From Gemmatimonadota bacterium (GTDB taxonomy: Bacteria; Gemmatimonadota; Gemmatimonadetes; Longimicrobiales; RSA9): a DNA stretch of 64,000 nucleotides. How positions within the stretch are numbered: the stretch's first letter is position 1; every line of letters begins with the position of its first letter. The notes beneath the pieces are model-generated. The model saw only the letters and a list, made by a program, of their open reading frames with translations, had not been told where the DNA came from and searched no databases. The stretch spans positions 4,422-68,421 of the forward strand of contig JARRJS010000003.1 of NCBI GenBank assembly GCA_037388885.1, in the 5' to 3' direction. Below, piece after piece: positions 1,157 to 27,686 of this stretch. Position numbers and translations under genes: made by a program.

Positions 1157-1159
1157 GGA

Positions 1160-2044
1160 CTACTCCCCCGGCTTGCCGCGGAATTCCTCCAACGCCATCG
1201 ACGCGAGCGTGGCGCGATCGGCCACGGCATCGAGGCTGGTGATCCTTCCACCGCCGAAGGTGAGCCGGAGCACGAGCAGCATCCGCCCCTTGACCGGCAC
1301 CAGGATGCCGACCTCGTCGTCGATGAGGCCCGACAGCGCCGCATCCGCGCGTCCCTTGAAGAACTCCGCCACGGCGGTGGGGCCGTGAACCTCCGCCGGG
1401 CCGCCCATGCGGATCGCCTGGGCGTCGCAGCGGAAGACGACGTCGGGATCGAGCACCGCCACGAGCGCCTCGAAATCACCGGCCTTGGCGGCGGCGATGA
1501 ACGCCTCGACGACCTCCCGCTTGCGGCTGCGATCGACGTCGGACGTCGAGGCGCCCCGCACACGCCGCCGCGCCCGGCTGGCCAGCTGCCGCGTGGCCAC
1601 GGGCGTCCGTCCGACGATGGGCGCGATCTCGTCGAACGGAAGGTCGAACATGTCGTGGAGCACGAACGCTACGCGCTCCGCTGGCTTCAGCGTCTCCAAC
1701 ACGACCAGCAGGGCCAGCCCCACCGCCTCGGCAAGCTCGGCATCCTCTTCGGGGGTGCGCGGGTGGCGCCGCGCGGCACGCGGTTGCGGCTGGTGCACGC
1801 CCAGCGTCTCCTCCCGGCGTGCCTTGCGCGTGCGCAGCATGTCGAGACAGACCCGCCCCACGATCGTCGTCATCCAGCCGCCGAGATTGTCTACGCCGCC
1901 GGCACCCGCACGGCTCATGCGCAGCCATGCCTCCTGCACGGCGTCGTCCGCCTCCGCAGCCGAGCCCAACATGCGGTAGGCCACCCCGCGCAGGTGTTCG
2001 CGGTTCTTCTCGAATCGTCGGGCCAGGAGCTCGCGTTCATCCAT
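1160..2044 (-). CDS. ECF-type sigma-70 factor with C-terminal SnoaL-like extension (SigJ/ECF41-like)
   Basis: Region 2 (DAVQEAWLRM...WMTTIVGRVCLDMLR) and region 4 (PAERVAFVLHDMFDLPFDEIAPIVGRTPVATRQLASRARRRV) are recognisable. A roughly 110-aa C-terminal extension follows, as in SigJ-type sigma factors. Confidence 0.85.
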   Translation of the reverse strand: MDERELLARRFEKNREHLRGVAYRMLGSAAEADDAVQEAWLRMSRAGAGGVDNLGGWMTTIVGRVCLDMLRTRKARREETLGVHQPQPRAARRHPRTPEEDAELAEAVGLALLVVLETLKPAERVAFVLHDMFDLPFDEIAPIVGRTPVATRQLASRARRRVRGASTSDVDRSRKREVVEAFIAAAKAGDFEALVAVLDPDVVFRCDAQAIRMGGPAEVHGPTAVAEFFKGRADAALSGLIDDEVGILVPVKGRMLLVLRLTFGGGRITSLDAVADRATLASMALEEFRGKPGE

Positions 2045-11630: not shown

Positions 11631-12104
11631 TCATGCCGAAGGCGCGTACTCGATCGGCAGGCTCATCGTAATCGCCTGGAGCTTCCGCATCGTCTCGATG
11701 TAGCGGCCGAAGTAGATGGCGGAAAGCCGCGTCTGGAGTGCGTAGCCCATCCGTACGTCCCGGTCCATCAGGTCCTTCAGGGCGGCGCTCTCGATCCTGA
11801 GAAGCTCGGAGTCCTTGGCACACTGCGCCGTCAGCGTGTACGCGTCTCGTTGAAAGCACGCGCAGGAGCCGAACATATCCCCCGGTCCCAGCTGATCGAT
11901 CAGGACGGTGAAGCCACCTGTGCCGGGCAGATGGAGCGTCACCTCGCCGTCGAGCACGGTGTAAAGATGATTGGCCTTCGCGCCCCGCTGGTACACCATC
12001 GCGCCGGCAGGGAACCGCACCCGCTCGGCTCGCTCGCTGATGGCGTGGACCTGCTCCGGGCGCAGGAAACTGAACACGTCGTGGGCAACGAGTCGTTCCG
12101 ACAT
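11631..12104 (-). CDS. Stand-alone cyclic-nucleotide-binding-domain protein
   Basis: The protein is 157 aa. The pattern F.FL.PEQV..I...AERVRFPAGAMVYQRGAKANHLYTVLDGEVTL...GPGDMFG is typical of cNMP-binding/Crp N-terminal domains. No HTH is present. The canonical R-[ST]-A phosphate-binding motif is not obvious. Confidence 0.7.
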   Translation of the reverse strand: MSERLVAHDVFSFLRPEQVHAISERAERVRFPAGAMVYQRGAKANHLYTVLDGEVTLHLPGTGGFTVLIDQLGPGDMFGSCACFQRDAYTLTAQCAKDSELLRIESAALKDLMDRDVRMGYALQTRLSAIYFGRYIETMRKLQAITMSLPIEYAPSA

Positions 12105-12390
12105 GGTCGTCCTCCTTGGGTGGCGTCACTGCACAGGACGGCATCGGATTCCGGGGCCGAGACCGGGCGTTGCACCGGATCCGTGGATGCGGTCGCCTGC
12201 AACACGCTTCCATCGAACCGCACCGCGATCTGGGGATCGCCCTCGACCATGAGGTGGGAGTCTCGCCCCAATACATCATACGCGAGTGGTCAGACTGGAG
12301 GAAGAGGGGGCGGAGCGGGCCCCCGGTCCTTCGTTCAGAAAGAGCGCCCTGGGCGGGGCCGCCCCCGCGTTGTTTGAAGCCTGGAAACGT

Positions 12391-13515
12391 TCAGACCGAT
12401 ATGCGCTCGTGGCGCACGGTGAGGTCATCCAGCCGGTCCAGGTCAACGTCCACACCGAGTCCCGCGCGGTCCAGCGGCACCTCCATGGTGCCGTCGCCGG
12501 TCATCGTCCACTCGGGCGTTACGATGTCGCGATCCCAGTACCGGGCGCTCGGCGAAAGATCGCCCGGAAGCTGGAAGTTGGGGAGGGAGGCCAACGCCAC
12601 GTTGTACGCGCGGCCGATGCCGCTTTCCAGCATGCCGCCGCACCAGACCGGCAGACCCGCCCGTTCGCAGATGTCATGGATCTCGTTGGACGCGCTGAAG
12701 CCGCCCACGCGACCCGGCTTGATGTTGATGATCCGTCCGCTACCCAGGGTGATCATGTCTTCCGCGTGCCTCGGGGAGTCGATGGACTCGTCCAGGCAGA
12801 GCGGCGTGCGCAGACGCTTCTGGAGCGCCGCGTGGCGGACCAGGTCAGAACGGTCGAGCGGCTGCTCGATCATCATCAGCTCCAGCTCGTCCAGCCGCGC
12901 CAGCACGTCCGCACGGTCCAGGGCATACGCCGAGTTGGCATCCACCATGAGCGGCGCGTCCGGACCCAGCGCCTCCCGCACCGCCGCCGCGGTCTCGTAG
13001 TCGGCGCCCGGCTTGATCTTCATCTTGACCTTGCGGTAGCCCTGCGCCAACGCCTCGCGGGCACGCTCCACCAGCGCGGCCGGACTGGCCTGGATACCCA
13101 AAGAGATACCCACGGGCACGCGCGTGCGCGTGCCGCCCAGCAGGCGCGCCAGGGGCAGCTCGCGCAGCGTCGCCGCCAGCGCCCAAAGGCCCATCTCGAC
13201 GGCCGCCTTCGCCATCTGGTGACCCCGGAAATCCTGCTCCAACACCGCCCGTACATCGCCCGGCTCCTCGAAGGTGCGACGCAACACCCGCGGCGCTACC
13301 CACGACTTGATGGCCAGCCATGCGGTGTCGATTGTCTCCGGGCTGTAATTCGGCGCCTCGCCCGCCACGCACTCCGACCAGCACGACACACCGTCAGGGT
13401 GCACCAGCTCCAGGATCAGGATCCGACGATCTTTCACCATCCCCGACGAAATCTCAAACCGTTCCTTCAACGGCAGCGCAATCTCCCTCAGGATCAACTC
13501 GTCGACCCTCAACAT
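12391..13515 (-). CDS. Enolase-superfamily MLE-subgroup enzyme: N-acyl(succinyl)amino-acid racemase / o-succinylbenzoate synthase family
   Basis: The full catalytic set is visible: KxK (YRKVKMKIKPG), metal ligands (MVDANSAY, MMIEQPL, LCLDESI) and the second Lys (INIKPGRVGG). There is no signal peptide, and no other men genes are in the window. Confidence 0.85.
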   Translation of the reverse strand: MLRVDELILREIALPLKERFEISSGMVKDRRILILELVHPDGVSCWSECVAGEAPNYSPETIDTAWLAIKSWVAPRVLRRTFEEPGDVRAVLEQDFRGHQMAKAAVEMGLWALAATLRELPLARLLGGTRTRVPVGISLGIQASPAALVERAREALAQGYRKVKMKIKPGADYETAAAVREALGPDAPLMVDANSAYALDRADVLARLDELELMMIEQPLDRSDLVRHAALQKRLRTPLCLDESIDSPRHAEDMITLGSGRIINIKPGRVGGFSASNEIHDICERAGLPVWCGGMLESGIGRAYNVALASLPNFQLPGDLSPSARYWDRDIVTPEWTMTGDGTMEVPLDRAGLGVDVDLDRLDDLTVRHERISV

Positions 13516-13646
13516 CCGTCCGCCTCCAGTCCAACTGTGTCAGTACGATGCGCGACCTCGTCGCCAGCCGCCGCCCTCCGGGCGGAACGGAGGCGCCTGT
13601 CGCGGGAATCCTTGCACGAATGAGCGGCACTCATTAATGTAGCCCT

Positions 13647-13658
13647 AAGTGTATACAA
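13647..13658. promoter_or_regulatory. Candidate operator AAGTGTATACAA (palindromic core TGTATACA) in the divergent racemase/susC promoter region
   Basis: The exact reverse complement recurs at 28652..28663, upstream of the GNAT gene and next to the GntR gene. Both copies sit in locally AT-rich intergenic DNA. Confidence 0.45.
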
Positions 13659-13800
13659 AACTCCATGCAGCATGGTGTGCGATGCACGCCGCAATCATAC
13701 ATGGCACGTGCCGCGGGGATCAAGTATCTGGATGTCCGCGACCAGGTCCGACGTCGGTTTCTGTGTGGTTCGAGGTCGTAACAGCTGATGGAGGGATGCT

Positions 13801-16800
13801 ATGCGGCAGGAAGCCCTAGCCAGCTTCAAGCGACGGGGGATGGTGTGTCGTTCCCGAGGAGTTGCGCTGGCTCTGACCATTGGTTTGCTGGTAGTGAGTG
13901 TCGTCCCCGTGCAGGCACAGACCGGGGCGATCGGCGGGACTGTCGTAGCGGGGAAGACGTTACGTCCTCTGGCCGGGGCCCAGGTGGTACTGATGGGCAC
14001 CAAGAGGGGGACTCTAACGGACTCGAATGGTCGGTTTCTGATTCCGGGTGTGGCCGGGACCACGGCAAGGCTGCAGGTGGTCATGATCGGTTACAAGACG
14101 GAAACACTGACGGTGCCGGTGGGAAAGCTGGACATCGAGGTCAGCATGCAGGTGGCGGCGGTTGCGTTGAATCGGATCGTGGTCACAGGGCAACCGGGTG
14201 GAGCGCGCGCTAAGTCCATCGGAAACTCGGTGGACGTCGTCGATGCTGCAACGGTGGCTTCGACGCAGCCGGTGAACAATGTGCAGGACATGCTGGATGC
14301 ACGGGCACCGGCGGTTTCAATCATGCGCGGCACCGGCATGGTCGGGGCGGGCTCCCGTATCAGGATCCGCGGGATCACGAGTTTCTCGCTGTCGGGCAAT
14401 CCACTCATCTACGTGGACGGCATCCGTGTGGACAACGAGTCGAACAGCGGGATTTCCATCCAGGCATTCGGCTCGGCGGTTGTCTCACGACTGAATGACT
14501 TCGACCCGGCCCAGATCGAGAGCATCCAGGTCTTGAAAGGGGCGGCGGCGACAACGTTGTTCGGAACCGAGGCGGCGCGTGGTGTGATCAACATCATCAC
14601 GAAGAAGGGCGCCCCCGGGGCGACGACGTACAACTTCACGATCAAACAGGGGGCCAACTGGTTCTCTAATCCAGAAGGTCGGATGCCGACAAACTACTGG
14701 CGGGATCCGTCGGGCAACATGGTCGCGCTGTCGTTCGCCGATCTTCAGAAGCTCTACGGCCGGAACATCTTCCGTACGGGGGGGCTCCAAACGTATGACG
14801 CGAATGTGAGCGGCGGTTCCGAGGTCCTGCGTTATTTCGTCGCAGGCGACCTCACTCAGAACCAGGGCGCCGAGCCGAACAATTTCAAGAATCAGTTCAG
14901 TGGCCGGGTGAATCTCGACATCCAGCCGTCGTCCAAGATCCACATTACGACGAGCGCGGGCTATGTGAACAGCCGAACGGAGTTGAGCTGTGAGGCGGGT
15001 TGCGGCGGCGCCATGTGGGACGCGACCTACTCGACACCGGCGCACTTGCCGCAATACGAGTGTGCGGCCACGGGCAACGCCTACGGCTGTGGCTTCCAGC
15101 TTGGATTCCGCAGCTGGACGCCGGAAGCAGAGCGGGCGATGCTGGACTACCAGATGGTGCACCGCTTCACCGGCAGCGTGAACCTGGAGTGGAAGCCGTT
15201 CAAGTGGATGACGCACCGATTGGTGGTGGGAACCGACTTAACGGAGGAGAAGAACCCGGAGCACCTGCCGTATCTGACGAACGATACGCTCATCTACTTC
15301 TGGGGGCCATACTACAGCAAGGGCTACACGTGGGAAAACCTGACCACGCACGTGTATCGCACGTTCGATTACGCAGGCACGGTGGATTTCGATGTCAACC
15401 CGCACGTGAACTCCTCCACATCCTTCGGTCTGCAGTACTACACGAAGCACATGGAATTCCTGCAGGCGGAGGGCGACCAGTTCTCGGCGCCGGGCCTGTC
15501 GACGATCAACGCGACAGCGACACAGGTGGGCGTGCACGGCGACTACGAGGACAATTTCACGCTGGGGATGTACGGCCAGGAACAGGTGGCGTTGAACGAC
15601 CGGCTGTTCCTGACGGCCGCCGTTCGCGTGGACAACAACTCTGCATTCGGCTCGGACTTCCAATGGGTCGTCTACCCCAAAGCAAGCCTGTCCTGGGTAC
15701 TGAATGAAGAGCCTGCAGTACGGAGGCGCATGCCGGATTGGATCGACGCATTCAAACTGCGGATGGCGTACGGAGAGTCCGGCCAGCAGCCACAGGCTTT
15801 CTCGGCCCTGCGGACGTACGAGCCCGTCACCGGGAGCCAGGATCGGCCAGCGATCACGCCCCAGGCCGTCGGCAATCCGAATCTGGGTCCGGAGCGCGTG
15901 AAGGAGATCGAAGCGGGCTTTGATGCGGGTCTGTTCAACGACCGGGTCGGCGCCGAGTTCACGTACTTCCACAACCGCACCGTGGACGGGATCCTTCTCC
16001 GTCCCGTACCCCCTTCCAGCGGGTTCCCCGGTTCGCAGTATGTGAACGCGGGTGAAATCACCGGCCATGGCATCGAAGTGACGGTGCACGGCTCAGTGCT
16101 GAACCTCAAGAACTTCGGCTGGGACCTGGCCTTCAACGTGTCGACCAACCACACGAAGGTGACGAAGCTGTATGGCAACGACACGACCATCGTGACGGGC
16201 AGCACACAGTACAAGCTGGGCTACCCGGCCAACGCATGGTTCCGGGAACGCGCCGTGAGCGCGACGTACGACCCGACGACGGGCCGCGCAACCAACATCA
16301 TGTGTGATGACGGCAACGGCGGGACGACCCCGTGTTACGGTCCGAATGGGGAGGTGCTCGCGCCGCGCGTGTACATGGGCAACACCCAGCCGACGACCAC
16401 CGGTGGAATCACGTCGACGTTCATGATCTTTTCCAGGCTACAGCTGAACACGGTGGTCGATTTCAGCCTGGGCAACAGGAAGTGGGACAACAACCTGCGG
16501 GTGCGTTGCCAGATCTTCCTGACCTGCCTCGAAAACATGAACCCGGAACAATATGATCCTGCCCTGATCGCGGGGATTCAGAGCAACGACATCCTGAACC
16601 AGTGGATCATCAACGACGCGAGCTTTGCCAAGCTCCGGGAAGTGTCCCTGCGGTATACGATGCCGGCTTCCTTCGCGCAAAAGATCGGTGCCAAACGGGC
16701 GTCCATCACCATCGCCGGCCGCAACCTGCATACGTGGTCGAAATGGACGGGGCTGGATCCGGAAAACATGTTCCTGGGCGGGCCTACGTTCCTGGAACAG

Positions 16801-16854
16801 GACAATCTTCCGCAGCTTATGCAGTTCGTGACCACCATCAATGTCAGCTTTTAG
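13801..16854 (+). CDS. SusC/RagA-family TonB-linked outer-membrane transporter
   Basis: GGAGG lies upstream of the ATG. A signal peptide is followed by a CarboxypepD_reg domain (GAIGGTVVAGKTLRPLAGAQVVLMGTKRGTLTDSNGRFLIPGV). The plug carries the GVINIITKKG signature. The barrel is about 1000 aa and ends ...TINVSF. A SusD-like gene follows immediately. Confidence 0.92.
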   Translation: MRQEALASFKRRGMVCRSRGVALALTIGLLVVSVVPVQAQTGAIGGTVVAGKTLRPLAGAQVVLMGTKRGTLTDSNGRFLIPGVAGTTARLQVVMIGYKTETLTVPVGKLDIEVSMQVAAVALNRIVVTGQPGGARAKSIGNSVDVVDAATVASTQPVNNVQDMLDARAPAVSIMRGTGMVGAGSRIRIRGITSFSLSGNPLIYVDGIRVDNESNSGISIQAFGSAVVSRLNDFDPAQIESIQVLKGAAATTLFGTEAARGVINIITKKGAPGATTYNFTIKQGANWFSNPEGRMPTNYWRDPSGNMVALSFADLQKLYGRNIFRTGGLQTYDANVSGGSEVLRYFVAGDLTQNQGAEPNNFKNQFSGRVNLDIQPSSKIHITTSAGYVNSRTELSCEAGCGGAMWDATYSTPAHLPQYECAATGNAYGCGFQLGFRSWTPEAERAMLDYQMVHRFTGSVNLEWKPFKWMTHRLVVGTDLTEEKNPEHLPYLTNDTLIYFWGPYYSKGYTWENLTTHVYRTFDYAGTVDFDVNPHVNSSTSFGLQYYTKHMEFLQAEGDQFSAPGLSTINATATQVGVHGDYEDNFTLGMYGQEQVALNDRLFLTAAVRVDNNSAFGSDFQWVVYPKASLSWVLNEEPAVRRRMPDWIDAFKLRMAYGESGQQPQAFSALRTYEPVTGSQDRPAITPQAVGNPNLGPERVKEIEAGFDAGLFNDRVGAEFTYFHNRTVDGILLRPVPPSSGFPGSQYVNAGEITGHGIEVTVHGSVLNLKNFGWDLAFNVSTNHTKVTKLYGNDTTIVTGSTQYKLGYPANAWFRERAVSATYDPTTGRATNIMCDDGNGGTTPCYGPNGEVLAPRVYMGNTQPTTTGGITSTFMIFSRLQLNTVVDFSLGNRKWDNNLRVRCQIFLTCLENMNPEQYDPALIAGIQSNDILNQWIINDASFAKLREVSLRYTMPASFAQKIGAKRASITIAGRNLHTWSKWTGLDPENMFLGGPTFLEQDNLPQLMQFVTTINVSF

Positions 16855-16869
16855 ACCGGGAGCGCCAAC

Positions 16870-18156
16870 ATGATTACGAGGATGAAGAAGTGCGGCGCAT
16901 TCGGCAAAGCCGGCCGGGACCTTGCGATCCTGTTCCTGAGCATGTCGGTGTTGGCGGCTTGCGACACGAGTCGCTTCCTGAATGTCACCGCGCCGAGCCG
17001 GCTGCCGGCGGCCGATTTGGAATCGCCTTCGAACGCACCGCTTCTGGTCGACGGCGCCGTGGAGGACTTTGGCTGCGCGTTCGCATCCGTGGTGCTCGTG
17101 GAGGCGATCGTGAGTGATGAGTTCTCCGACGCGCAGCTGGGCGCGGCGGCCTGGCCGTACGACCGCCGGGATGCGAATACGCAACCGAGCGGCATCTACG
17201 GCACCAGCGGCTGCGACAGCAACCAGAATCCGGGCGTGTACCGGCCCCTGTCCACGGCACGTTTCTCAGCCGACAACGCCCTGAAGCTGCTACAGGGCTG
17301 GACCGACGCGGAGGTGCCGAAGCGGGACTCGCTGATAGCCGTGGCGGCCCTGTATTCAGCGTACAGCTACACATGGCTCGGCATGACCATGTGCAACGCG
17401 GCTATTGACGAGGGTCCGGAGATCGGCCAGCAGGATTTGTTCGCCCTGGCGGAGGACAAGTTCAACCTGGCGATCCAGGAAGGAGGGACGGCCGGGCTCA
17501 CCGACCTTGTCAACGCGGCCTACGTCGGCCGGGCCCGGGTCCGTTTGTTCCAGGGCGACATGAGCGGGGCGATCAGCGACGCCCAGCAGGTGCCTGCCGG
17601 CTTCGTCTACAATGCCGATTACTCGAGCGCCAACAACCGTCGCTACAACCGGGTCTTTGCATCCAACGTGCAGTACCGGATGTACTCCGTGGAGGACCAG
17701 GACCGCGCCTTGATGACGGCAGGCGTCGTGGACCCGCGGACGGTAGCGCAGGATTCGCACCAGGCGGGTGCCGACGGCAGCGACGTCTGGGTTCAGACGA
17801 AGTATACCAGCTTCTCGAGCCCGATTCCCATTGCCAAATACGAAGAGGCACAGCTCATCCTGGCAGAGGCCGAAGGCGGCCAGGCGGCGGTGGCCATCAT
17901 CAACGGGCTGCGTGACGAAGTCGGTCTGCCGCATTTCCAGAGCACGGATCCTCAGGCGATCATGAACCAGGTGATCGATGAGCGTCGCAAGGTCTTGTTC
18001 GTGGAAGGGCAGCGCCAGTACGACATCGAGCGATTCAATCTGCCACAGGTCCCCGCGCCGGGTACGGCGTACCCGGTCAAGGGTGGCACGTATGGCAACA
18101 CGACGTGCTTCCCGCTTCCCAATGTGGAGCGCTTCAACAATCCGAACATTCCTTGA
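16870..18156 (+). CDS. SusD/RagB-family nutrient-binding outer-membrane lipoprotein
   Basis: The gene starts 15 nt after susC. It has lipobox LAAC and an alpha-helical TPR-like composition. The C-terminal region (EEAQLILAEAEGG...ERRKVLFVEGQRQYDIERF) is typical of SusD-like proteins. Confidence 0.88.
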   Translation: MITRMKKCGAFGKAGRDLAILFLSMSVLAACDTSRFLNVTAPSRLPAADLESPSNAPLLVDGAVEDFGCAFASVVLVEAIVSDEFSDAQLGAAAWPYDRRDANTQPSGIYGTSGCDSNQNPGVYRPLSTARFSADNALKLLQGWTDAEVPKRDSLIAVAALYSAYSYTWLGMTMCNAAIDEGPEIGQQDLFALAEDKFNLAIQEGGTAGLTDLVNAAYVGRARVRLFQGDMSGAISDAQQVPAGFVYNADYSSANNRRYNRVFASNVQYRMYSVEDQDRALMTAGVVDPRTVAQDSHQAGADGSDVWVQTKYTSFSSPIPIAKYEEAQLILAEAEGGQAAVAIINGLRDEVGLPHFQSTDPQAIMNQVIDERRKVLFVEGQRQYDIERFNLPQVPAPGTAYPVKGGTYGNTTCFPLPNVERFNNPNIP

Positions 18157-18164
18157 CTTGTGAC

Positions 18165-18195
18165 CAGCCCCGGAGCCGAATCGGCTCCGGGGCTG
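18165..18195 (+). terminator. Strong GC-rich hairpin after susD (candidate intrinsic terminator/attenuator)
   Basis: CAGCCCCGGAGCC-gaatc-GGCTCCGGGGCTG forms a 13-14 bp perfect stem followed by TTGTGTATCTC. It lies 9 nt after the susD stop and 40 nt before the next start. Confidence 0.65.
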
Positions 18196-18235
18196 TTGTG
18201 TATCTCGGTCACAGGTGCATCCGGGCGCCACCAAA

Positions 18236-19801
18236 ATGAACGCAATCGAGGGAAGGACCCGTCGCGGGCGCTCACGCTTCGTCGCGTTGGCCCTGCTGCT
18301 GCTTTTTGTGCTGCCACAGGGGTGGCTCGCCGGTCAGGAGCCGCCGCTCACCGGGCTGGACGGCTACATCCGGAACGCGATGCAGCAATGGGGCATTGCC
18401 GGCCTGGCCATCGCCGTGGTCCACGACGACTCGGTGGTCTTCGCACAAGGCTACGGCGTGCGTCAAGTGGGGAAGCCCGACCCGGTGGATACACACACGC
18501 TCTTCGCCATCGGCTCGAACACCAAGTTCTTCACTGCCGTTGCACTGGGCACGCTGGTCGATCAGGGCAAGATGGACTGGGATGCTCCGGTCACGACGTA
18601 CCTGCCCTGGTTCCAGCTATACGACCCATACGTGACTCGCGAGTTCACCGTGGGTGACGCGTTGTCCCACGACAGCGGGCTGGGCCGGCGTGGTGATCTG
18701 CTCTGGTACGGCTCGACGTACAGCCGGGACGAGGTGTTGCACCGCATCCGCTATCTGAAGCCTATCTCCAGCTTCCGTGCGAAGTTCGGCTACCAGAACA
18801 TCATGGTCATGGCGGCCGGCCAGGCCGGTGGGGCGGCCGCCGGCGAGAGTTGGGACTCCCTGGTGACCGGCCGGATTCTGCGGCCCTTGGGCATGGCCCA
18901 GACCAACACCAGCGTGCGCGACCTCGCAGGGCTGCCCGATGTCGCGCAGCCGCACGTCTGGCATGAAGGCAAGCCCACGCCCGTGCCGTGGCGAAACATC
19001 GACAACATCGGGCCTGCCGGCTCGATCAACTCCAACGTGATGGACATGTCGCATTGGCTGCGCATGCTGCTCGATGACGGCCGCTTCGGTGGAGAGCAGA
19101 TCATCAAGCCGGCTACGCTACAGCGGATCGAAGCGCCGCATACGGTCATGCCGTTCTCGCAGGACAGTCTGTTTCCTTCAATACACTTCGTGTTCTACGG
19201 CTACGGCATCGGCATGGACGATTACCACGGCGTGAAGGTGCTACAGCACACCGGCGGCATCGATGGCATGCTGTCGCAGGTGGCACTGATCCCCGAGAGG
19301 CATCTGGGCCTCGTCGTGTTGACGAACACCGAAGGCCACAACGCGCTGTTTACGGCCCTCATGTGGCGCGTGTTCGATGCCTACCTGGGCGCGTCGCCGC
19401 GGGACTGGAGCACGATCCTGCTGGAGCGGACGAAGAAACAGGAAGCGGCCGCGGCCGCCCGTTGGAAGAAGCGGCAGGAGGAGCGAAAGACGGGCACGCA
19501 TCCGTCGCTGTCGTTGTCCGCATATGCGGGTACGTACCGGAACGAGATGTACGGGGACCTGGACGTCCAATATGACGGGAAGAAGCTGGTCGTGCATTTC
19601 GGCCCGTCGTTCACCGGGGACCTCACGCACTGGCACTACGACACCTTCCTTGCCAACTGGCGCAGCATCCGTGAAGGCCGCGCGTTCATGAACTTCCATC
19701 TCGGGATAGACGGCAAGGTCGACTCCGTCGAGGTGCAGGGCATCGCGTCGTTTGCGCGAGTCGTAGAGCAGGCAGAGCAGAAGGACACGGGCGGGCGCTG
19801 A
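18236..19801 (+). CDS. Exported serine hydrolase, beta-lactamase/R61 DD-peptidase fold (S12-like) with C-terminal extra domain
   Basis: A signal peptide (RFVALALLLLFVLPQGWLAGQ) is present. The three motifs are SxxK (GSNTK), YxN (GYQN) and HxG (QHTGG), as in Streptomyces R61 DD-peptidase / D-aminopeptidase-type enzymes. The C-terminal roughly 120 aa are DUF3471-like. Confidence 0.85.
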   Translation: MNAIEGRTRRGRSRFVALALLLLFVLPQGWLAGQEPPLTGLDGYIRNAMQQWGIAGLAIAVVHDDSVVFAQGYGVRQVGKPDPVDTHTLFAIGSNTKFFTAVALGTLVDQGKMDWDAPVTTYLPWFQLYDPYVTREFTVGDALSHDSGLGRRGDLLWYGSTYSRDEVLHRIRYLKPISSFRAKFGYQNIMVMAAGQAGGAAAGESWDSLVTGRILRPLGMAQTNTSVRDLAGLPDVAQPHVWHEGKPTPVPWRNIDNIGPAGSINSNVMDMSHWLRMLLDDGRFGGEQIIKPATLQRIEAPHTVMPFSQDSLFPSIHFVFYGYGIGMDDYHGVKVLQHTGGIDGMLSQVALIPERHLGLVVLTNTEGHNALFTALMWRVFDAYLGASPRDWSTILLERTKKQEAAAAARWKKRQEERKTGTHPSLSLSAYAGTYRNEMYGDLDVQYDGKKLVVHFGPSFTGDLTHWHYDTFLANWRSIREGRAFMNFHLGIDGKVDSVEVQGIASFARVVEQAEQKDTGGR

Positions 19802-19842
19802 GGCCGCGCAGGCTTTTCCACTTCAACGCGAAGGAACGTCGC

Positions 19843-21525
19843 ATGAACATCGCTGGTCGTTTCCGGCCACCTGCCGTCGCGCTACTGTCTCTGGGCGTCG
19901 CCCTCGGTTGCGCTGCACGGTCTTCGCGTCCGGTTGCGGTCCGACCGCAGGAGTCGGCTCCGTACGACGTGGTGATTCGCGGCGGCCGGGTGCTCGATGG
20001 CGCCGGCAACCCGTGGATCGCCGCGGATGTGGCCATCAAGGACGGACGGTTCGCGAAGATCGGGCGCGTGGAGGGGCGGGGCAGGGTGGAGATCGATGCG
20101 TCGGGCGACTACGTGTCTCCCGGCTGGATCGACATGATGGATCAATCAGGCAGGGCCCTGTTGAAGAGCGGTCTGGCCGTGAACAAGCTGCGCGAGGGCG
20201 TTACCACGGCGATCGCCGGCGAAGGAGGTCCGCCGGTGCCGGCTGACTCCATGCGCGCGTACTTCGACACGCTGGAACGCCAGGGCATCAGTCTCAACTT
20301 CGGCATCTACTACAACGAGACGCAGGCGCGCGTCGCAGTCATGGGGCAGGTCGCGCGGGATCCGACGCCCGCGGAGCTGACGCGCATGAAGGCGATCATG
20401 GACACGGCCATGGTCCAGGGCGCGCAGGGCATGACCACGGCGTTGATCTACCCGCCGGCGAGTTATTCGAAGACGCCGGAGCTGATCGCGGTGGCGCGTG
20501 AAGCTGCCCGGTACGGCGGGATCTACGCCAGCCATGTGCGAGGCGAAGGCAAGGAGGTGCTGGACGCCATCGGGGAAGCCATCCGCATCGGCGAGCAGGC
20601 GGGACTGCCGGTGGAGATCTTCCATCTGAAAGTGGCGTACAAGCCCGCCTGGGGCGTGCTCATGCCGCAGGTAGGCCGGCTCATCGATGCTGCGCGCGCC
20701 CGGGGCGATGAGGTGTCTGCGGACATGTACGTGTACACCGCGGGCGGAACGGGTCTGGAGGCGACGATCCCGTCCTGGGCCCATGAGGGAGGGGTGGACT
20801 CGCTCAAGGCGCGCCTGGCGCGGCCCGCCGTGCGGGCCCGGCTGAAGCGCGAGGTCCAGCAGGGCTCGCCCGGCTGGTGGAACATCGTCGAGGCGTCCGG
20901 GGGCTGGGACGGCATCATCCTGGCCAACGCGCGCAACCCTGCGAACGCACATTTCGAGGGTGAGTCCATCGCTCAGATCGCGGACGAGGAGCACAAGGAC
21001 CCCGCGGACGCGGCCTGGGACCTGGTGGTGCAGGGTGATGGGCGGGTCACGGCGATCTATTTCATGATGAGCGAGAAGGACATCGAGACGGCGCTCAGGT
21101 TCCCGTGGCTCAGCATCGGCAGCGATGCCGGGGCGTCGGTGGGGGGGAAGGGCGACGAGCTCGGGCTGCCGCATCCGCGGGCGTACGGCAATTTCCCCCG
21201 CGTCATCGCGCGCTACGTGCGGGATGAGCACGTGCTGACCCTGCCGGAGGCGATCCGTAAGATGACATCCTGGCCTGCCACGCGGATGCGCCTCCAGGAC
21301 CGCGGCGTGATCCGCGCGGGCGACTGGGCGGACGTGACGATCTTCAACTACGACGAAATCCAGGATGAGGCCACGTATGACCATCCCAGGCGCTATGCGA
21401 AAGGCGTGGACTATGTGCTTGTCAACGGCAAAGTGGTCGTGGACCACGGACGCCACACCGGCGCGAAGCCGGGCATGGTCCTCTACGGCCCGGGCTACGT
21501 TCCGGCCCCGTCCGCGGGGCACTGA
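19843..21525 (+). CDS. D-aminoacylase (N-acyl-D-amino-acid deacylase) family amidohydrolase, lipoprotein
   Basis: The protein has lipobox LGC and the N-terminus YDVVIRGGRVLDGAGNPWIAADVAIKDGRFAKIG. Family motifs YASHVRGEG, EIFHLK and IGSDAG are present. The expected HxH after PGWID is replaced by MMD (see findings). Confidence 0.8.
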   Translation: MNIAGRFRPPAVALLSLGVALGCAARSSRPVAVRPQESAPYDVVIRGGRVLDGAGNPWIAADVAIKDGRFAKIGRVEGRGRVEIDASGDYVSPGWIDMMDQSGRALLKSGLAVNKLREGVTTAIAGEGGPPVPADSMRAYFDTLERQGISLNFGIYYNETQARVAVMGQVARDPTPAELTRMKAIMDTAMVQGAQGMTTALIYPPASYSKTPELIAVAREAARYGGIYASHVRGEGKEVLDAIGEAIRIGEQAGLPVEIFHLKVAYKPAWGVLMPQVGRLIDAARARGDEVSADMYVYTAGGTGLEATIPSWAHEGGVDSLKARLARPAVRARLKREVQQGSPGWWNIVEASGGWDGIILANARNPANAHFEGESIAQIADEEHKDPADAAWDLVVQGDGRVTAIYFMMSEKDIETALRFPWLSIGSDAGASVGGKGDELGLPHPRAYGNFPRVIARYVRDEHVLTLPEAIRKMTSWPATRMRLQDRGVIRAGDWADVTIFNYDEIQDEATYDHPRRYAKGVDYVLVNGKVVVDHGRHTGAKPGMVLYGPGYVPAPSAGH

Positions 21526-21526
21526 C

Positions 21527-23395
21527 ATGCGGCGCGCCGCCGTCTCCGCCGTGCTGACGCTCGCGCTGCTGCCGGCGTTCGGGTCGGCGCAGCAGGGCGG
21601 GGACGTATCCGCGCGCTACGTCCGCCGGGAGGTCATGATCCCCATGCGTGACGGCGTGCGCCTGCATACGATCATCTACTCACCGCCGTCGCCGGGACCG
21701 CACCCGTTCATCCTCGAGCGCACGCCGTACGGCATCGCCCGTTCGGCACGCGCGCTGGACAATTCGCTACGGCCCATGGCCGAGGACAGCGGCGGCTACA
21801 TCTTCGTGTTCCAGGACATCCGCGGCCGCTACGGTTCCGAAGGCCGGTTTGTGATGCAGCGTCCGCCACGCGATCCGGCGGACAGCACGGCGATCGACGA
21901 AGGCACCGATACCTACGACACCATCGACTGGCTGCTGGAGAACGTGCCACACAACAACGGCAAGGTGGGCATGCTGGGCGTGTCGTACCCCGGCTGGCTG
22001 ACGGTCATGGCCATGCTGGACCCGCACCCGGCGCTCAAGGCGGTGTCACCCCAGGCCTCGCCCGCCGACATGTTCATCGGCGATGACTTCCACCACAACG
22101 GCGCCTTCCGCCTCAGCTACGGTTTTGAGTACGCCGCCATGATGGAGACCTCCAAGGTCAACGCCAACTTCTCCTTCGACCGCTACGACACCTACCAGTG
22201 GTACCTGGCGCTGGGCCCGCTGTCGAACGTGAACGCCCGCTACCTGCACGGGAAGATCCCGACCTGGAACGACTACGTGGCACACCCGAACTACGACGCG
22301 TTCTGGCAGCGGCGCGCAGTGACACCATACCTGACGCGCGTCACGGTGCCCACGTTGAACGTGGCCGGCTGGTGGGACCAGGAGGACTTCTACGGACCGA
22401 TCACCATCTACCGCGAGCTGGAGAAGCACGACTCGCAGAACCGCAACTTCCTGGTCGTAGGCCCGTGGAACCACGGCGGCTGGAGCCGCGGCCCGGGCCG
22501 GCGCCTGGGGCGCATCGACTTCGGAAGCGCCACGGGTCAGTACTTCCGGACGCGCATCGAGGCGCCGTTCTTCGCGCATTACCTGAAGGGCCGGGACCTG
22601 CCGCGGGAGCCGGAGGCGGTGACGTTCGAGGCAGGTGACAATCAATGGCACACGTGGTCGGCGTGGCCGCCGAAGACGGACGTGCGGGACGCGGACCTCT
22701 ACCTGCACGGTGATGGCAACCTCAGCTTCGACGCCCCGAGCGACGCGGGCGTCGTGAGCTACCTCTCCGACCCGGCACACCCGGTGCCGTACCGCCACCG
22801 GCCCATCGAGCCGACGTACTTCCCGGGCGGTTCGGGCTGGTACACCTGGCTGCTTGAGGACCAACGGTTCGTGGACAACCGCCCGGACGTGGCCACGTGG
22901 GTGTCGGCCCCACTCGACCACGATGTCACCATCACGGGCGACATCACGGCGCGTCTCTTCGCTGCCACCACGGGGAGCGCGGCCGACTGGGTCGTCAAGC
23001 TCATCGACGTCTACCCGGAGAAGTACGAGCCGAACCCGAAGCTGGGCGGGTGGGAGCTGATGGTGGCGAACGACGTCTTCCGCGGCCGCTTCCGGAACGG
23101 TTACACCCACCCCGAGCCCATCACGCCCGGCAAGGTGACGGCCTACACCATCGACCTGCACACCCAGGACTACCGGTTTCTGAAGGGGCACCGGATCATG
23201 GTCCAGGTGCAGAGCACGTGGTTTCCCATCATTGACCGGAACCCGCAGACGTACGTGCCGAACATCTTCAAGGCCCGCGCAAGCGATTACCGCAAGGCCA
23301 CGCAGAGCATCTACGCATCGCCACGTTACCCTTCTCGCATCAGCGTGCACGTCGTGACCGATGCGCAGGGGGCATCGGGATCGCGCAGTCATTGA
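21527..23395 (+). CDS. CocE/NonD-family (S15, Xaa-Pro dipeptidyl-peptidase / alpha-amino-acid ester hydrolase-like) serine hydrolase, exported
   Basis: The ATG at 21527 lies 1 nt after the upstream stop. A signal peptide (AVLTLALLPAFGSAQQ) and the nucleophile elbow GVSYPGW are present. A C-terminal jelly-roll-type domain (MVQVQSTWFP) is also recognisable. Confidence 0.85.
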   Translation: MRRAAVSAVLTLALLPAFGSAQQGGDVSARYVRREVMIPMRDGVRLHTIIYSPPSPGPHPFILERTPYGIARSARALDNSLRPMAEDSGGYIFVFQDIRGRYGSEGRFVMQRPPRDPADSTAIDEGTDTYDTIDWLLENVPHNNGKVGMLGVSYPGWLTVMAMLDPHPALKAVSPQASPADMFIGDDFHHNGAFRLSYGFEYAAMMETSKVNANFSFDRYDTYQWYLALGPLSNVNARYLHGKIPTWNDYVAHPNYDAFWQRRAVTPYLTRVTVPTLNVAGWWDQEDFYGPITIYRELEKHDSQNRNFLVVGPWNHGGWSRGPGRRLGRIDFGSATGQYFRTRIEAPFFAHYLKGRDLPREPEAVTFEAGDNQWHTWSAWPPKTDVRDADLYLHGDGNLSFDAPSDAGVVSYLSDPAHPVPYRHRPIEPTYFPGGSGWYTWLLEDQRFVDNRPDVATWVSAPLDHDVTITGDITARLFAATTGSAADWVVKLIDVYPEKYEPNPKLGGWELMVANDVFRGRFRNGYTHPEPITPGKVTAYTIDLHTQDYRFLKGHRIMVQVQSTWFPIIDRNPQTYVPNIFKARASDYRKATQSIYASPRYPSRISVHVVTDAQGASGSRSH

Positions 23396-23432
23396 AAGAC
23401 GTGCAACGGAGCTCGACCGGGGGACAGAGATC

Positions 23433-25865
23433 ATGCAGCGATACGGAAGCCGGATGAACCGGCGCATTGTTCCGATCATGTTGGCTGCCGTGGCGCTTTC
23501 CGGCTGCGGCAGGCGCGGCGGCGACACGGGCCGAGCACAGGGCTACGACGACGTCGTCCATGCGCTTCAGTCGTTCGTTCGCCATGAGCGCGCGGAAAAG
23601 GGCATTCCGGGCCTTTCTCTGGCGCTGGTGGACAGTCAGAGGGTCGTGTGGGCGGCCGGCTTCGGCTGGGCGGATTCCACGGCCGGCGTGCGCGCCACGC
23701 CCGAGACCGTGTACCGCGTGGGCTCCGTGTCCAAGCTGTTCACCGACATCGCGATCATGCGGCTGGTCGAGCGCGGCGAGCTGGACCTGGACGCGCCCAT
23801 CCAGAAATACCTGCCGTCGTTCGAGCCACGGAATCCGTTCGGCGGCACGATCACAATCCGGGAGCTGAGCGCGCACCGCGCGGGGCTCACGCGGGAGCCG
23901 CCGGTGGGCAGCTACTTCGATGACAGCAGTCCCACGCTTGCGCAGACGGTCGCATCGCTGAACCAGACCACGCTGCTGTATGCGCCGGGCAGCCACACGA
24001 AGTATTCCAACGCGGGCATCGCCGTGCTCGGTTACGTGCTCCAGAAGACGCAGGGCGCGTCCTTCTACCCGTATCTGAAGAGCACGCTGCTCGACTCCAT
24101 GGGATTGCACGACAGCGCCTTCCAACCGCTGCCTGCGCTCGAGCAGCGGCTGGCCAAAGGCTACATGTGGAGCTACGACGGGAAATTCTTCGATGCGCCC
24201 ACCTTCCAGCTGGGCATGGGGCCGTGCGGCAGCATGTACAGCACCGTGCTCGACCTGGCGCGCTTCGAGCGCATCCTGTTCGCGGGCGGCGTGGCGCCGG
24301 ACGGCCCGCGGATCCTGCAGCGTAAGACGCTGGATGAGATGTGGACGCCGCAGTTCGCGCCGAAGGATGCGAGGACAGGTTACGGCATCGGGTTCCACAT
24401 CGGGCAACTCGCCGGGCACCGGGTCGTGGGGCACGACGGCGCCATCTACGGTTTCGCGACAACGCTGACCGCGCTGCCCGACGACGGGCTCGGCGTCGTC
24501 GTCATCGCTTCGTTGGACGGCGTGAACGCCACCACCGACCGGATCGCAAACGCCGCATTGCGCCTGATGCTGGCCCGGCGCGAGCACCGGCCGCTGCCGG
24601 CGCTGGACACGACCACGGCGCTCGGCGCCGCGGACGCGCTCCGCCTCCAGGGTCGCTATCTGAAGGATGGCCGCGGCGTCGACCTCAAGGAATATGAAGG
24701 ACACCTGTATATGATGCCGACGGCCGGCGGGTTGCGCAGCGAAGTGCGACGACTCCCGGACGACAGCCTCGTGGTGGATGGGCGATTGGCGTACGGCCCG
24801 CGCATCACGCCCCTGGACGACGGGCGGCTGGTGCTCGGTGTCGACACGCTGTCGCGGGTGCCGACGGAGCATCCGGCAGCGCTGGTGACCCGGCCGAAAC
24901 CGAAGGCCGACATTTCCCCGGCGTTCCACGGACTGATAGGCGAGTACGGCTGGCCGTATGAGACGCTCTACATCTTCGAGAAGGACGGCCGGCTCCATGC
25001 GCTCATCGAATGGTTCTTCGAATATCCGCTGAAACGGGTGTCCCGGGACGTCTACGCCTTCCCCGATTGGGGGCTTTACGACGGCCAGAAGATCGTATTC
25101 GAACGCGACGCGGACGGGCAGGCACAGGCTGCCATCGCCGCCAATGTCACGTTCAAACGTATCCCGCTTCCGGGTGACGAGAACGGAGTTTCGTTCCGTA
25201 TCACGCCGGTGAAGCCGGTGTCGGAGTTGCGTACGGAGGCGTTGAAGGCTTCACCGCCCGCCGAGAAAGGTGATTTCAGAAAGCCCGACCTGGTGGAGCT
25301 GCGCAGTCTCGACCCGACCATCAAGTACGACATCCGCTACGCGACGACGAACAACTTCATGGGACACCCGTTCTACACCTCCGCCCACGCCTTCATGCAG
25401 CGTCCGGCGGCCGAAGCGGTGGCACGCGTCTCCCGGCTGCTGCGCCCGCTGGGCTATGGACTCTTGATCCACGACGCGTACCGGCCGTGGTACGTGACCA
25501 AGATGTTCTGGGACGGGACACCCGTGGACAAACACCAGTTCGTCGCAGACCCGAGCGAGGGTTCCCACCACAACCGCGGCTGCGCGGTCGATCTCACGCT
25601 CTACGACCTGAAGACAGGCCGGTCCGTGCGGACCACCGGCGGTTACGACGAGATGTCCGAGCGGTCCTACCCGCTATATCCTGGTGGCACCAATCATCAG
25701 CGCTGGCTGCGCGACTTGCTACGACACGCCATGGAGTCCCAGGGCTTCACCGTATACGAGTTCGAGTGGTGGCACTTCGATTACAAGGACTGGCAGCGTT
25801 ACCCGATCCTGAACATCACGTTCGAGCAGCTCGCCAGTCAGCACAGCGCCGAGGGTAGTCGTTGA
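23433..25865 (+). CDS. Fusion lipoprotein: R61/class-C-type serine hydrolase + linker domain + VanX/DdpX-type zinc D-Ala-D-Ala dipeptidase
   Basis: Lipobox LSGC is present. The N-terminal domain has SxxK (GSVSK), YxN (KYSN) and HxG (GHDG). The C-terminal domain (about 25281..25862) has SHHNRGCAVD (His..Asp zinc ligands, 25563..25592) and EFEWWHFDY (Glu/His), matching the VanX motifs. Confidence 0.85.
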   Translation: MQRYGSRMNRRIVPIMLAAVALSGCGRRGGDTGRAQGYDDVVHALQSFVRHERAEKGIPGLSLALVDSQRVVWAAGFGWADSTAGVRATPETVYRVGSVSKLFTDIAIMRLVERGELDLDAPIQKYLPSFEPRNPFGGTITIRELSAHRAGLTREPPVGSYFDDSSPTLAQTVASLNQTTLLYAPGSHTKYSNAGIAVLGYVLQKTQGASFYPYLKSTLLDSMGLHDSAFQPLPALEQRLAKGYMWSYDGKFFDAPTFQLGMGPCGSMYSTVLDLARFERILFAGGVAPDGPRILQRKTLDEMWTPQFAPKDARTGYGIGFHIGQLAGHRVVGHDGAIYGFATTLTALPDDGLGVVVIASLDGVNATTDRIANAALRLMLARREHRPLPALDTTTALGAADALRLQGRYLKDGRGVDLKEYEGHLYMMPTAGGLRSEVRRLPDDSLVVDGRLAYGPRITPLDDGRLVLGVDTLSRVPTEHPAALVTRPKPKADISPAFHGLIGEYGWPYETLYIFEKDGRLHALIEWFFEYPLKRVSRDVYAFPDWGLYDGQKIVFERDADGQAQAAIAANVTFKRIPLPGDENGVSFRITPVKPVSELRTEALKASPPAEKGDFRKPDLVELRSLDPTIKYDIRYATTNNFMGHPFYTSAHAFMQRPAAEAVARVSRLLRPLGYGLLIHDAYRPWYVTKMFWDGTPVDKHQFVADPSEGSHHNRGCAVDLTLYDLKTGRSVRTTGGYDEMSERSYPLYPGGTNHQRWLRDLLRHAMESQGFTVYEFEWWHFDYKDWQRYPILNITFEQLASQHSAEGSR

Positions 25866-26039: not shown

Positions 26040-27686
26040 TCAGTGCCCGGTCGTGGCTGTGTCCGACGGCGCGATGGGGTACGCGTATGCCGCGGCGGCG
26101 ATCTCCCCCAGCGTCTGGCCAGCGATCTTCGTCACACCGTCCTCCAGGTCGGACGGGATTGGCACGCGGTTCAAGTAGAACGCGAACGCGAGATGCCGGC
26201 CGTTCACCGTCGTGATGTAGCCCGCGAGTCCCTTGGCCGTAAGGATGAGATGCTGGTTCAGCTTGTCGTACGCGCCGAACGTCCCCGTCTTCGCATGTAC
26301 GTGGCCGACGGCCGGGGAATGCGTCTGGATATTCCAGAGTGTGCCGTCCACGCCCAGGACGGGCAGCGCATTGTACAGATCGTTGAAATCATCACGCTCC
26401 CGCATGGCTGCCAGATAGCGAACCATGAAGTCGGGCGCGAAGAATGCGGACTGTGCGCCGCCCGCACCGTCCCCTTGCGACGCGCCGCTCAGGTCTAGCC
26501 CCAACTTGCCGAGGAAATCACGTTCGAGCTCGAAGCCTTTCTTCTCCGCATTCTGGTTCTCACCGCCCAGCACAGAGCCCAGGATGTAGGGCGTCATGCT
26601 GGCGTGCAGGTTCTGACTCACCTTCAGCGTGACCTTCAGTTCCTGCGAGAACGGCGGCGACGTATGCTCGGCAACGACATGGTCCGGTGTGTAAGAAGAC
26701 GAAAGTGCCTGGAAATCCACGACCTCGTTATACGGCGGCGGCTCTGCGCTCACACCGTCTTCAGCCAGCGCTTCGGAAAGCACCACTTCCGCGAAACGGC
26801 TCGGCTGCGGCACCGCGTACGAGAACAACCACGGCTGCGAGCCCGTCGGCATGCTGCCCGTGACCGTGACCATGTGGCTGCCATCCACCATGGTGCTGTC
26901 ATGCGCCCAATGGATCTCCACTTTGGTGGAATCCGCCGGGCCTGTCTCCGTCTTGTTCACGAACTGGACGTAGCTGGTCTGGGGCGAAGGCTGGATCGTC
27001 AGGGGCGCACTCAGCGAATCACCCGGCCCGATCGTCACGTCCACCAGGTTGTCGTTCACCGCAACCGGCGAGATCACCACGCCGCTGCCGAGCTCCCGAC
27101 TGCCCTCCGGGAACAACGACACGTCGACCAGCACGTGCCCCGTCACCCGCTTGATCCCGTGCTTCGCGATCTGGTCCGCCAACTGACGGATCACCTGCAA
27201 CGGATCACCCGGAACGGCTTTTGTATACTTGCTTCCATCGTACGCGTGATCCTCGTTCTCGAACGCCAGCGTTCCGTCCGGTTGAATCCGGTTCGACAAG
27301 TCCGGATCACCGCTCGCTACCAGCACGATATCGCCGTCCAACGTACCGTCCGCCGCGATGGGGCCGGTGCGGTACACCCGCGTCTTGAACCGGTGGTCCG
27401 CACCCAGCAATGCCAACGCCGTACCCTCCGTCACCAACTTGGTCGTCGACGCCGGGGTGAACAGCTTGTCCCCGTTGTGCACATAGAGCGGCTGGTGGTC
27501 GTCCAGCGAGTACACCTCCAGACCCCAGATCGAGTGCTCAAAGGCCGGACGCGCCATGATGGCCTTCACCACGTCCTGGAAGGTCGTGTCCTGTTGCGCT
27601 CGCACGCCCGCAGGAACAAGAACGCAGAACGCGAGGATCGCCGGTGCGACGCTGCGGTAGCCCAACCCTCGTCGGAAAGTTGTCAT
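26040..27686 (-). CDS. dacB: PBP4-type D-alanyl-D-alanine carboxypeptidase/endopeptidase (peptidase S13)
   Basis: ATG at 27686 is followed by a signal peptide (AILAFCVLVPAGVRAQQ). The SxxK (ASTTK), SxN-like (VSQNLHA) and KTG (HAKTGTF) motifs are present, with the inserted domains typical of PBP4. Confidence 0.85.
   Translation of the reverse strand: MTTFRRGLGYRSVAPAILAFCVLVPAGVRAQQDTTFQDVVKAIMARPAFEHSIWGLEVYSLDDHQPLYVHNGDKLFTPASTTKLVTEGTALALLGADHRFKTRVYRTGPIAADGTLDGDIVLVASGDPDLSNRIQPDGTLAFENEDHAYDGSKYTKAVPGDPLQVIRQLADQIAKHGIKRVTGHVLVDVSLFPEGSRELGSGVVISPVAVNDNLVDVTIGPGDSLSAPLTIQPSPQTSYVQFVNKTETGPADSTKVEIHWAHDSTMVDGSHMVTVTGSMPTGSQPWLFSYAVPQPSRFAEVVLSEALAEDGVSAEPPPYNEVVDFQALSSSYTPDHVVAEHTSPPFSQELKVTLKVSQNLHASMTPYILGSVLGGENQNAEKKGFELERDFLGKLGLDLSGASQGDGAGGAQSAFFAPDFMVRYLAAMRERDDFNDLYNALPVLGVDGTLWNIQTHSPAVGHVHAKTGTFGAYDKLNQHLILTAKGLAGYITTVNGRHLAFAFYLNRVPIPSDLEDGVTKIAGQTLGEIAAAAYAYPIAPSDTATTGH

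Follow-up and report, generated by a model that had tools for sequence, protein, structure and literature searches.

To our knowledge, almost no regulation has been characterised in the soil phylum Gemmatimonadota. One member of this phylum, an uncultured bacterium, has a draft genome of 4.74 Mb, in which a 64 kb stretch of DNA (the whole of which is referred to here as the window; window and draft genome are both 68% GC) carries the same 12-mer in two intergenic regions, as AAGTGTATACAA at 13647-13658 (+) between divergent racemase and susC genes, and as its reverse complement at 28652-28663 (-; + strand letters TTGTATACACTT) between a GntR regulator gene and a GNAT gene. This raises the question of whether the word marks the operators of a single regulator and, if so, which genes that regulator would control. 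The original prediction, made from the sequence of the window, placed the racemase and the GNAT, and possibly also the susCD pair, under a single regulator, probably the adjacent GntR. Based on the analysis below, we consider it likely that the 12-mers are the cores of putative operators of this FadR-subfamily GntR/FCD regulator, which would repress the units of the locus.

The repeated word and its chance level

The 12-mer, its reverse-complement copy, a palindromic core and an extended match between the copies had all been described, and all were re-found in the sequence. The core is the perfect palindrome TGTATACA (13650-13657 in the first copy; full box B below) and the match can be extended to AAGTGTATACAAnAC. 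The predicted distances were likewise correct: the racemase ATG (13515) lies 132 nt and the susC ATG (13801) 143 nt from the first copy, and the second copy sits 75 nt past the GntR stop (28577) and 57 nt ahead of the GNAT ATG (28721). The expectation that a chance duplicate of this specific word is unlikely stood, as three instances with at most one mismatch were seen in the window against 0.01 expected from window shuffles. However, 12-nt inverted repeats as such are common in the window, where 464 inverted pairs share an exact seed of 12 nt, almost all of them in GC-rich coding sequence. A scan of the draft genome, which had been proposed as a check, revealed that the 12-mer is not frequent genome-wide, with only two exact copies, both at this locus. 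The 8-mer TGTATACA occurs 12 times genome-wide compared to approximately nine occurrences expected from base composition (our arithmetic), and at least eight of these fall in frames with high third-position GC, i.e., in coding sequence. Due to the number of inverted pairs and a core frequency near expectation, the bare 12-nt repeat is weak evidence on its own, and the case must therefore rest on context and conservation; specifically, the word is AT-rich, palindromic and intergenic, an independent profile recovers it and relatives conserve it. A one-mismatch copy at 41083-41094 was rejected as a site and judged to be chance because it is coding, has no half box and is one of about 1.4 such copies expected per genome (our arithmetic); it was also missed by the independent profile.

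Gene content of the locus

A gene map was built from Pfam, NCBIfam and PDB matches and a third-position-GC gene call (Table 1), and these gene-level domain searches confirmed the racemase, susC, GntR and GNAT identities on which the original prediction depended. The best PDB matches of the racemase are the N-acylamino acid racemases 2ggg/1r0m (E ~1e-92), and it scores 314 bits against TIGR01928 (cutoff, 200). The regulator has an unnamed GntR as its best PDB match (E 7e-14) and low protein similarity to DgoR, and the NanR subfamily model is among its best NCBIfam matches, yet below cutoff. The susC-susD-hydrolase string spans 13801-25865 (+), in an order that is shared after the box in two relatives (G036 and G017). 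Two + strand open reading frames proposed earlier, at 25896 and 26604, proved not to be genes, and this interval is instead occupied by the PBP4/S13 DD-peptidase on the opposite strand. No characterised relative of the GNAT was recognisable and no M20 gene was present among the scanned genes of the locus. Beyond the genes named above, the gene that directly follows the racemase on its strand (11631-12104) encodes a 157-aa protein with only a cyclic-nucleotide-binding domain, and a hybrid kinase is encoded at 32450-34966. A reading of the repeats as CRP/FNR or response-regulator sites was rejected, as the box is a FadR-type palindrome and the cyclic-nucleotide-binding protein is without a helix-turn-helix.

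Table 1. Genes, predicted operator sites and other elements of the locus (positions in the window)
Feature	Position	Strand	Evidence or context
N-acyl/N-succinylamino-acid racemase, OSBS/NSAR subfamily, enolase superfamily	12391-13515	-	PDB and TIGR01928
Site 1 (predicted operator)	13634-13681	+	divergent racemase/susC intergenic region, conserved footprint
SusC-like TonB receptor	13801-16854	+	Pfam Plug, TonB_dep_Rec, CarboxypepD_reg
SusD-like	16870-18156	+	Pfam SusD_RagB
Serine beta-lactamase-fold peptidase with DUF3471	18215-19801	+	domain search
Amidohydro_3	19843-21525	+	domain search
S15/CocE-NonD hydrolase	21365-23395	+	domain search
Beta-lactamase-fold::VanX fusion	23361-25865	+	domain search
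PBP4/S13-type DD-carboxypeptidase/endopeptidase	26040-27686	-	divergent from GntR
Site 3 (candidate, weaker)	27776-27795	+	GGTATCCA-ATATGTGA-TCCA, 12-nt period
GntR regulator, FadR subfamily, wHTH and FCD, 236 aa	27867-28577	+	Pfam GntR and FCD
Terminator-like hairpin	28564-28586	+	overlaps GntR stop codon; consensus scan only
Site 2 (predicted operator)	28653-28672	+	between GntR and GNAT; box B TGTATACA, 8-nt spacer CTTTGACG, half box TACA
GNAT acyltransferase	28721-29587	+	domain search
APC amino-acid permease	29574-30977	+	domain search
Third beta-lactamase-fold hydrolase	ORF 30716-32359	+	domain search
One-mismatch copy AAGTGCATACAA (rejected)	41083-41094	-	inside ORF 41053-41382 (-), without half box

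Architecture of the predicted operators

Sites 1-3 are all intergenic and upstream of putative target genes, and relatives have conserved sites at the orthologous positions. The box has the form T(T/G)GTATACA(A/C), with half-sites TKGT and ACMA, and occurs in the variants TGTATACA, GGTATACA, TGTATCCA and TGTATGCA. At sites 1 and 2 it is an A/T-rich palindrome, TTGT-AT-ACA(A/C), that conforms to the FadR-subfamily operator consensus TKGT-N2-3-ACMA (PMC4494728; PMC7641319), in agreement with the GntR-family operator shape that had been suggested for the repeat. A second box or half box (TRCA/TGTA) lies at an offset of exactly 12 bp from the full box, and the predicted operator is larger than the 12 nt of the repeat, with a full box and half boxes 12 bp away.

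Site 1 has the layout TGTA(13638-13641)-N8-TGTATACA-N8-TGCA(13666-13669)-N5-GTGTGCG(13675-13681) and, as the TGTA provides a half box 12 bp away on the other side too, the composite pattern described below matches both of its strands. The GTGTGCG block lies exactly 5 nt past the TGCA half box and is kept in the window and in four loci of relatives (L081, L003, L004 and L101); it could be a transcription start region or the site of a second factor. Site 1 has a short, perfect inverted repeat on either side, AATGAG-CGGCA-CTCATT toward the racemase (13620-13636) and CCATGC-A-GCATGG toward susC (13663-13675); the latter overlaps the TGCA half box, is flagged on the - strand by a terminator scan and is not conserved in relatives. 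At site 2 the half box is read toward the GNAT gene, and the spacer CTTTGACG contains TTGACG, a 5/6 match to the sigma-70 -35 hexamer. Relatives have GCAAG/CTTGC as the spacer, where site 2 has CTTTG with the TTGACG, and these non-palindromic conserved elements (the GCAAG/CTTGC spacer and the downstream GTGTGCG) are unexplained by a symmetric dimer. It is a speculation that a TTG promoter element is sandwiched between the boxes.

Site 3 lies in the 180-nt divergent intergenic region between the PBP4-like and GntR genes, 84 nt upstream of the GntR ATG. Approximately 45 nt around it are conserved with the GntR-upstream region of the closest relative (G036), whose version of the box is TGTATCCA-N8-TGCA. 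Site 3 matches the composite pattern, yet falls below the threshold of profile R1 (see below), and as a result of the latter it is assigned with lower confidence than sites 1 and 2; on balance we favor a degenerate double box of the same family that probably has a role in autoregulation. Control of the PBP4-like gene from this site is a further possibility.

The terminator-like hairpin that overlaps the GntR stop codon would make the GNAT gene a separate transcription unit in need of its own promoter and operator. A scan with the sigma-70 consensus, which may not be that of the host phylum, returned TTGATC-18-TATGAT at 13723-13694 (-) as the sole match near site 1 and no match near sites 2 and 3; a start at this element would place site 1 about 20-50 nt downstream of it. 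An Rfam search of the intergenic regions returned no RNA family and a known leader or riboswitch therefore has no support as a reading of these regions.

Conservation of the sites in related genomes

Orthologs of the GntR (50-71% identity) are present in 33 of 61 related genomes, and linkage to racemase, GNAT, susC and peptidase orthologs recurs across many genomes of the Gemmatimonadota. In the closest relative, the GntR gene and a TGTATACA box are followed by a co-directional string, susC-...-amidohydrolase-...-VanX fusion-GNAT-racemase-permease, and in the window this string is broken into pieces with one box kept per piece. The GNAT and racemase genes are neighbours in five relatives (G036, G032, G009, G010 and G026). 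Boxes lie ahead of susC, of a second peptidase block and of GNAT-racemase in G032, and in the divergent GNAT-racemase/susC region in G009. A genome of the same genus as the window (G001) is without a close ortholog of either the GntR (best, 42% identity) or the racemase (best, 54% identity), which suggests that the locus as a whole is an accessory gene set with a patchy distribution. The 54% racemase of G001 resembles a second copy in the window genome, on contig C62.

The conservation asked about by the original prediction, in the form of phylogenetic footprinting, is seen at orthologous positions for both copies of the 12-mer, in five relatives for site 1 and in four genera for site 2. Read toward susC, site 1 aligns in register over ~50 nt with sites in G036, G032, G017, G003 and L101, all of which sit just downstream of the GntR gene and three of which (G036, G032 and G017) have the box between GntR and a confirmed susC as the next gene. 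The shared pattern is TGTATACA-N8-TGCA-N5-GTGTGCG, while the flanks diverge. Site 2 aligns with the GNAT-proximal double boxes TTGTATACCTTGCTGTATACC of G032, G009, G010 and G021, which lie upstream of GNAT-racemase and have the same polarity toward GNAT. The site alignments have the consensus nGTATACnGCAAGGTATACAA, consisting of two GTATAC boxes with starts 12 bp apart, of which the second is reduced to TGCA in the nearest relatives, and double boxes of the type GTATAC-N6-GTATAC occur upstream of many orthologous GntR genes. One ortholog with double boxes (L154) comes from a MAG labelled Gemmatimonas aurantiaca. An origin of the repeat as a mobile element or REP-like sequence was rejected, as similarity stops within ~30 nt and the sites are orthologous across genera.

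One or more boxes with no more than one mismatch were present near GntR (up to 400 nt upstream or up to 250 nt downstream) in 34 of 80 oriented loci from public genomes. By hand count over these loci, there were 47 hits in the ~50 kb beside GntR and 19 in the remaining ~420 kb, a density approximately 20 times higher, though the contrast is partly compositional. About half of the orthologous GntR loci are without a box at one mismatch or fewer, and a profile search (R1, below) found sites in three of 17 GntR loci that had no near-exact box. No site was found by the profile in eight racemase loci from genomes without a GntR ortholog.

Independent pattern searches

Profile R1 is a sequence-only profile of 28 nt, built from 27 sites beside orthologous GntR genes in other Gemmatimonadota and excluding the window. 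Applied to the 64 kb window, R1 ranked site 1 first (E 0.07) and site 2 second (E 0.08). In a scan of the whole genome R1 returned nothing at E <= 10, a 28-nt profile being too weak for 9.5 Mb. An R1 match at 53225-53237 (GGTATACAAAG) was rejected, as it falls within the first part of a GH65 gene that directly follows a trehalose-phosphatase gene.

A composite pattern, KGTATMCA-N8-TNCA, was written after the sites (including site 3) had been seen, with degeneracies taken from the relatives. There were four matches to this pattern in the window and none in 100 shuffles. Genome-wide there were five matches, four of them in this locus and one in coding sequence on contig C289, and none for a reversed control. 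Both of the genome-wide matches in G036 flank the orthologous GntR, and the TGTATACA-type matches in G032, G010 and G017 fall in the orthologous loci. In G033, in which the racemase is present and the GntR ortholog is absent, the pattern has no match genome-wide. Elsewhere in the window genome, a perfect 12-nt palindrome, CATGTATACATG, is located near the 5' end of a small - strand open reading frame (C45:6755-6772; L162) and could be the operator of another regulator.

Alternative explanations for the shared boxes

The sites themselves are present, specific to the locus, conserved at orthologous positions and co-occurring with the regulator gene, and the rival explanations concern what they are and which protein binds them. 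Chance recurrence of a functionless AT-rich 12-mer in two AT-rich intergenic regions would be compatible with the 464 exact 12-nt inverted pairs in the window and with a core that is not over-represented genome-wide, but not with the independent ranking by R1, which puts both sites on top, the in-register conservation in other genera, the locus-specific matches to the composite pattern or the half boxes that the sites have in common at an identical 12-bp offset; on the comparative data this explanation appears already contradicted, and we regard it as very improbable. There is somewhat more to be said for the shared word being mainly a promoter element of a Gemmatimonadota type, or a composite of promoter and operator, in which the (C)TTG(C) and GTGTGCG/TAnCTTG-like blocks are polymerase contacts. 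Non-palindromic parts of the sites are conserved, the spacer of site 2 places five of the six bases of a -35 hexamer between box B and the half box, and AusR operators that overlap a -7 box have been documented (PMC7641319). Nevertheless, with 12 core 8-mers per genome, at least eight of them coding, the box is much too rare for a general promoter element, and it is a perfect FadR-type palindrome that tracks one regulator gene through rearrangements. A promoter element in place of an operator is accordingly improbable, and this reading complements an operator of the adjacent GntR more than it replaces it.

A third possibility is that the boxes are real operators bound by a different regulator, namely a GntR/FCD paralog in the window genome (on contig C73; 32% identical to the GntR of the locus), or by both proteins with cross-talk. 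The paralog shares the recognition-helix motif SRTPVR with the GntR of the locus, is preceded, at 60-90 nt from its own start, by perfect TTGTATACAA and CGTATACAAT boxes and is linked to a D-aminoacylase-family gene too. However, the boxes on C73 are spaced by 19 bp rather than the 12 bp seen here and C73 has no match to the composite pattern, while in the relatives the boxes track the ortholog of the locus-adjacent GntR and are absent where that ortholog is absent. Binding by the paralog is thus unlikely, if less so than a bare promoter element, and C73 probably carries an autoregulated operon of its own, built on the same half-sites at a 19-bp box spacing. This contig region (G000 C73:1-1810; L161) encodes the GntR/FCD protein at 1006-1716 (-), followed by an Amidohydro_3 gene, and the upstream region carries TTGTATACAAATTTCGTATTCGTATACAATTT.

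Proposed regulon and mechanism

Co-control of the racemase and the GNAT by one regulator, the adjacent GntR, is supported by the genomic linkage, the occurrence of the same box in relatives and its absence where the GntR is missing. The role of susCD, previously put forward as a possibility, is strengthened, as site 1 is the predicted ortholog of the susC operators of the relatives and control of susCD is, on this comparison, more than merely possible. We infer that the GntR product is the binder and that it acts in repression rather than activation; by analogy to DgoR, AusR and most FadR-type regulators, it is most likely a repressor.

In the FadR-type family, one dimer binds each palindrome and paired operators lead to cooperative repression. 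At this locus one dimer of the regulator would bind the full palindromic box, and the box or half box at the 12-bp offset could hold a second dimer or stabilise the first. Site 1 would control two divergent units, the racemase gene and the susCD-D-peptidase operon, site 2 would serve the GNAT-permease-hydrolase operon, and the degenerate site 3, between the regulator gene and the divergent PBP4-like gene, would lie upstream of both. Four or five units would thereby be repressed: the racemase, susCD-peptidase, GNAT-permease, gntR itself and perhaps the PBP4-like gene. The regulator would leave the DNA once its FCD domain is occupied by a carboxylate that arises as a pathway intermediate. The identity of the effector and the placement of the promoters are likewise inferred. 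Candidate effectors are suggested by the enzyme set, in which a SusCD importer and a permease are combined with hydrolases of the DD-peptidase-fold and VanX types and with the GNAT and NSAR-type racemase; they are D-amino acids, N-acyl/N-succinyl-D-amino acids and di- or oligopeptides that contain D-Ala. A tentative extension is that the regulator senses D-amino-acid-derived metabolites (N-succinyl/N-acyl-D-amino acids or D-Ala-D-Ala) and switches on both SusCD-based scavenging of peptidoglycan-type D-peptides and an NSAR/GNAT branch for D-to-L conversion.

If correct, this would be the first defined transcriptional circuit for the use of D-peptides via a SusCD importer and among the first regulons described in the Gemmatimonadota, and the operator design may set a promoter TTG element between two boxes. 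A loose cluster of SusCD, DD-peptidase-fold, VanX, racemase, GNAT and permease genes becomes one testable regulon, with a DNA target of ~30 bp and a candidate sensor protein now defined, which offers a route to the substrate and inducer of a probable scavenging system for D-amino-acid peptides (cell-wall debris). The operator type itself is well known and the value lies in functional annotation, not in a new mechanism.

Comparison with characterised systems

The result is a prediction, at the level of comparative genomics, of a familiar type of operator and regulon with AusR and DgoR as the closest analogues. DgoR, the FadR-subfamily GntR repressor of the E. coli dgo operon, has the operator repeat IR1 = TTGTAGTACAA and is induced by a carboxylate substrate of its pathway (PMC11705089). 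The half-sites TTGTA/TACAA are identical to those of the box in the window, and both systems have two closely spaced repeats at a regulated promoter and a regulator encoded in the locus. The palindrome in the window is even-centred (TTGTATACAA, GT-N2-AC), whereas that of DgoR has a central base, and here the second box is in many cases reduced to a half site 12 bp away and the predicted regulon extends over three intergenic regions with enzymes for D-amino acids and peptides. A literature search for TTGTATACAA returned only Gateway att sites.

AusR of Zobellia galactanivorans is a GntR/FadR repressor of an alginate utilisation system with TonB receptor/SusD genes, has single, double and triple TKGT-N2-3-ACMA operators at several promoters with a weaker site before its own gene, and responds to degradation intermediates (PMC7641319). 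The shared trait is a FadR-type GntR encoded inside a SusC/SusD uptake locus, and here the SusC-like and SusD-like genes are placed under the predicted operator at site 1. The locus differs in its phylum (Gemmatimonadota), in a predicted substrate of D-amino-acid peptides as opposed to the polysaccharide of AusR, and in operator spacing, with AusR operator pairs 3 bases apart and box centres in the window 12 bp apart. Instead of glycan-degrading enzymes, it encodes serine DD-peptidase-fold, VanX, S15, Amidohydro_3 and PBP4-like proteins, and is PUL-like in its working, yet not a PUL in the strict sense.

NanR of E. coli binds a (GGTATA)3 repeat operator (PMC8012715), and its sites are direct repeats without the FadR palindrome (PMC4494728). 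The GGTATA/GTATAC-like hexamers at short, fixed spacing are reminiscent of the sites described here, and by this analogy several dimers would probably bind cooperatively, as with NanR. The main box here is a perfect palindrome with a period of 12 bp and there are two boxes at most, and these differences ruled out a direct-repeat operator of the NanR type.

For the enzymes, the closest precedent is an operon for the conversion of D- to L-amino acids in Geobacillus kaustophilus, which encodes a GNAT succinyltransferase, an NSAR/OSBS and an M20 desuccinylase (bioRxiv 10.1101/2022.03.03.481873). A literature search found no regulator for the Geobacillus pathway and no paper linking NSAR and GntR. 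As in Geobacillus, the locus combines an NSAR/OSBS-subfamily racemase with a GNAT, whose genes are neighbours in relatives and are tied together in the window by the shared predicted operator. It differs in having no M20 L-desuccinylase gene among those scanned. In several relatives (L069, from genome G038, at 11729-14070, L068, L064 and L079), a gene of the class-A-like Beta-lactamase2 family is found after the racemase. In G038, an M20 peptidase gene also follows the racemase cluster, and could be the missing desuccinylase of the D-to-L pathway.
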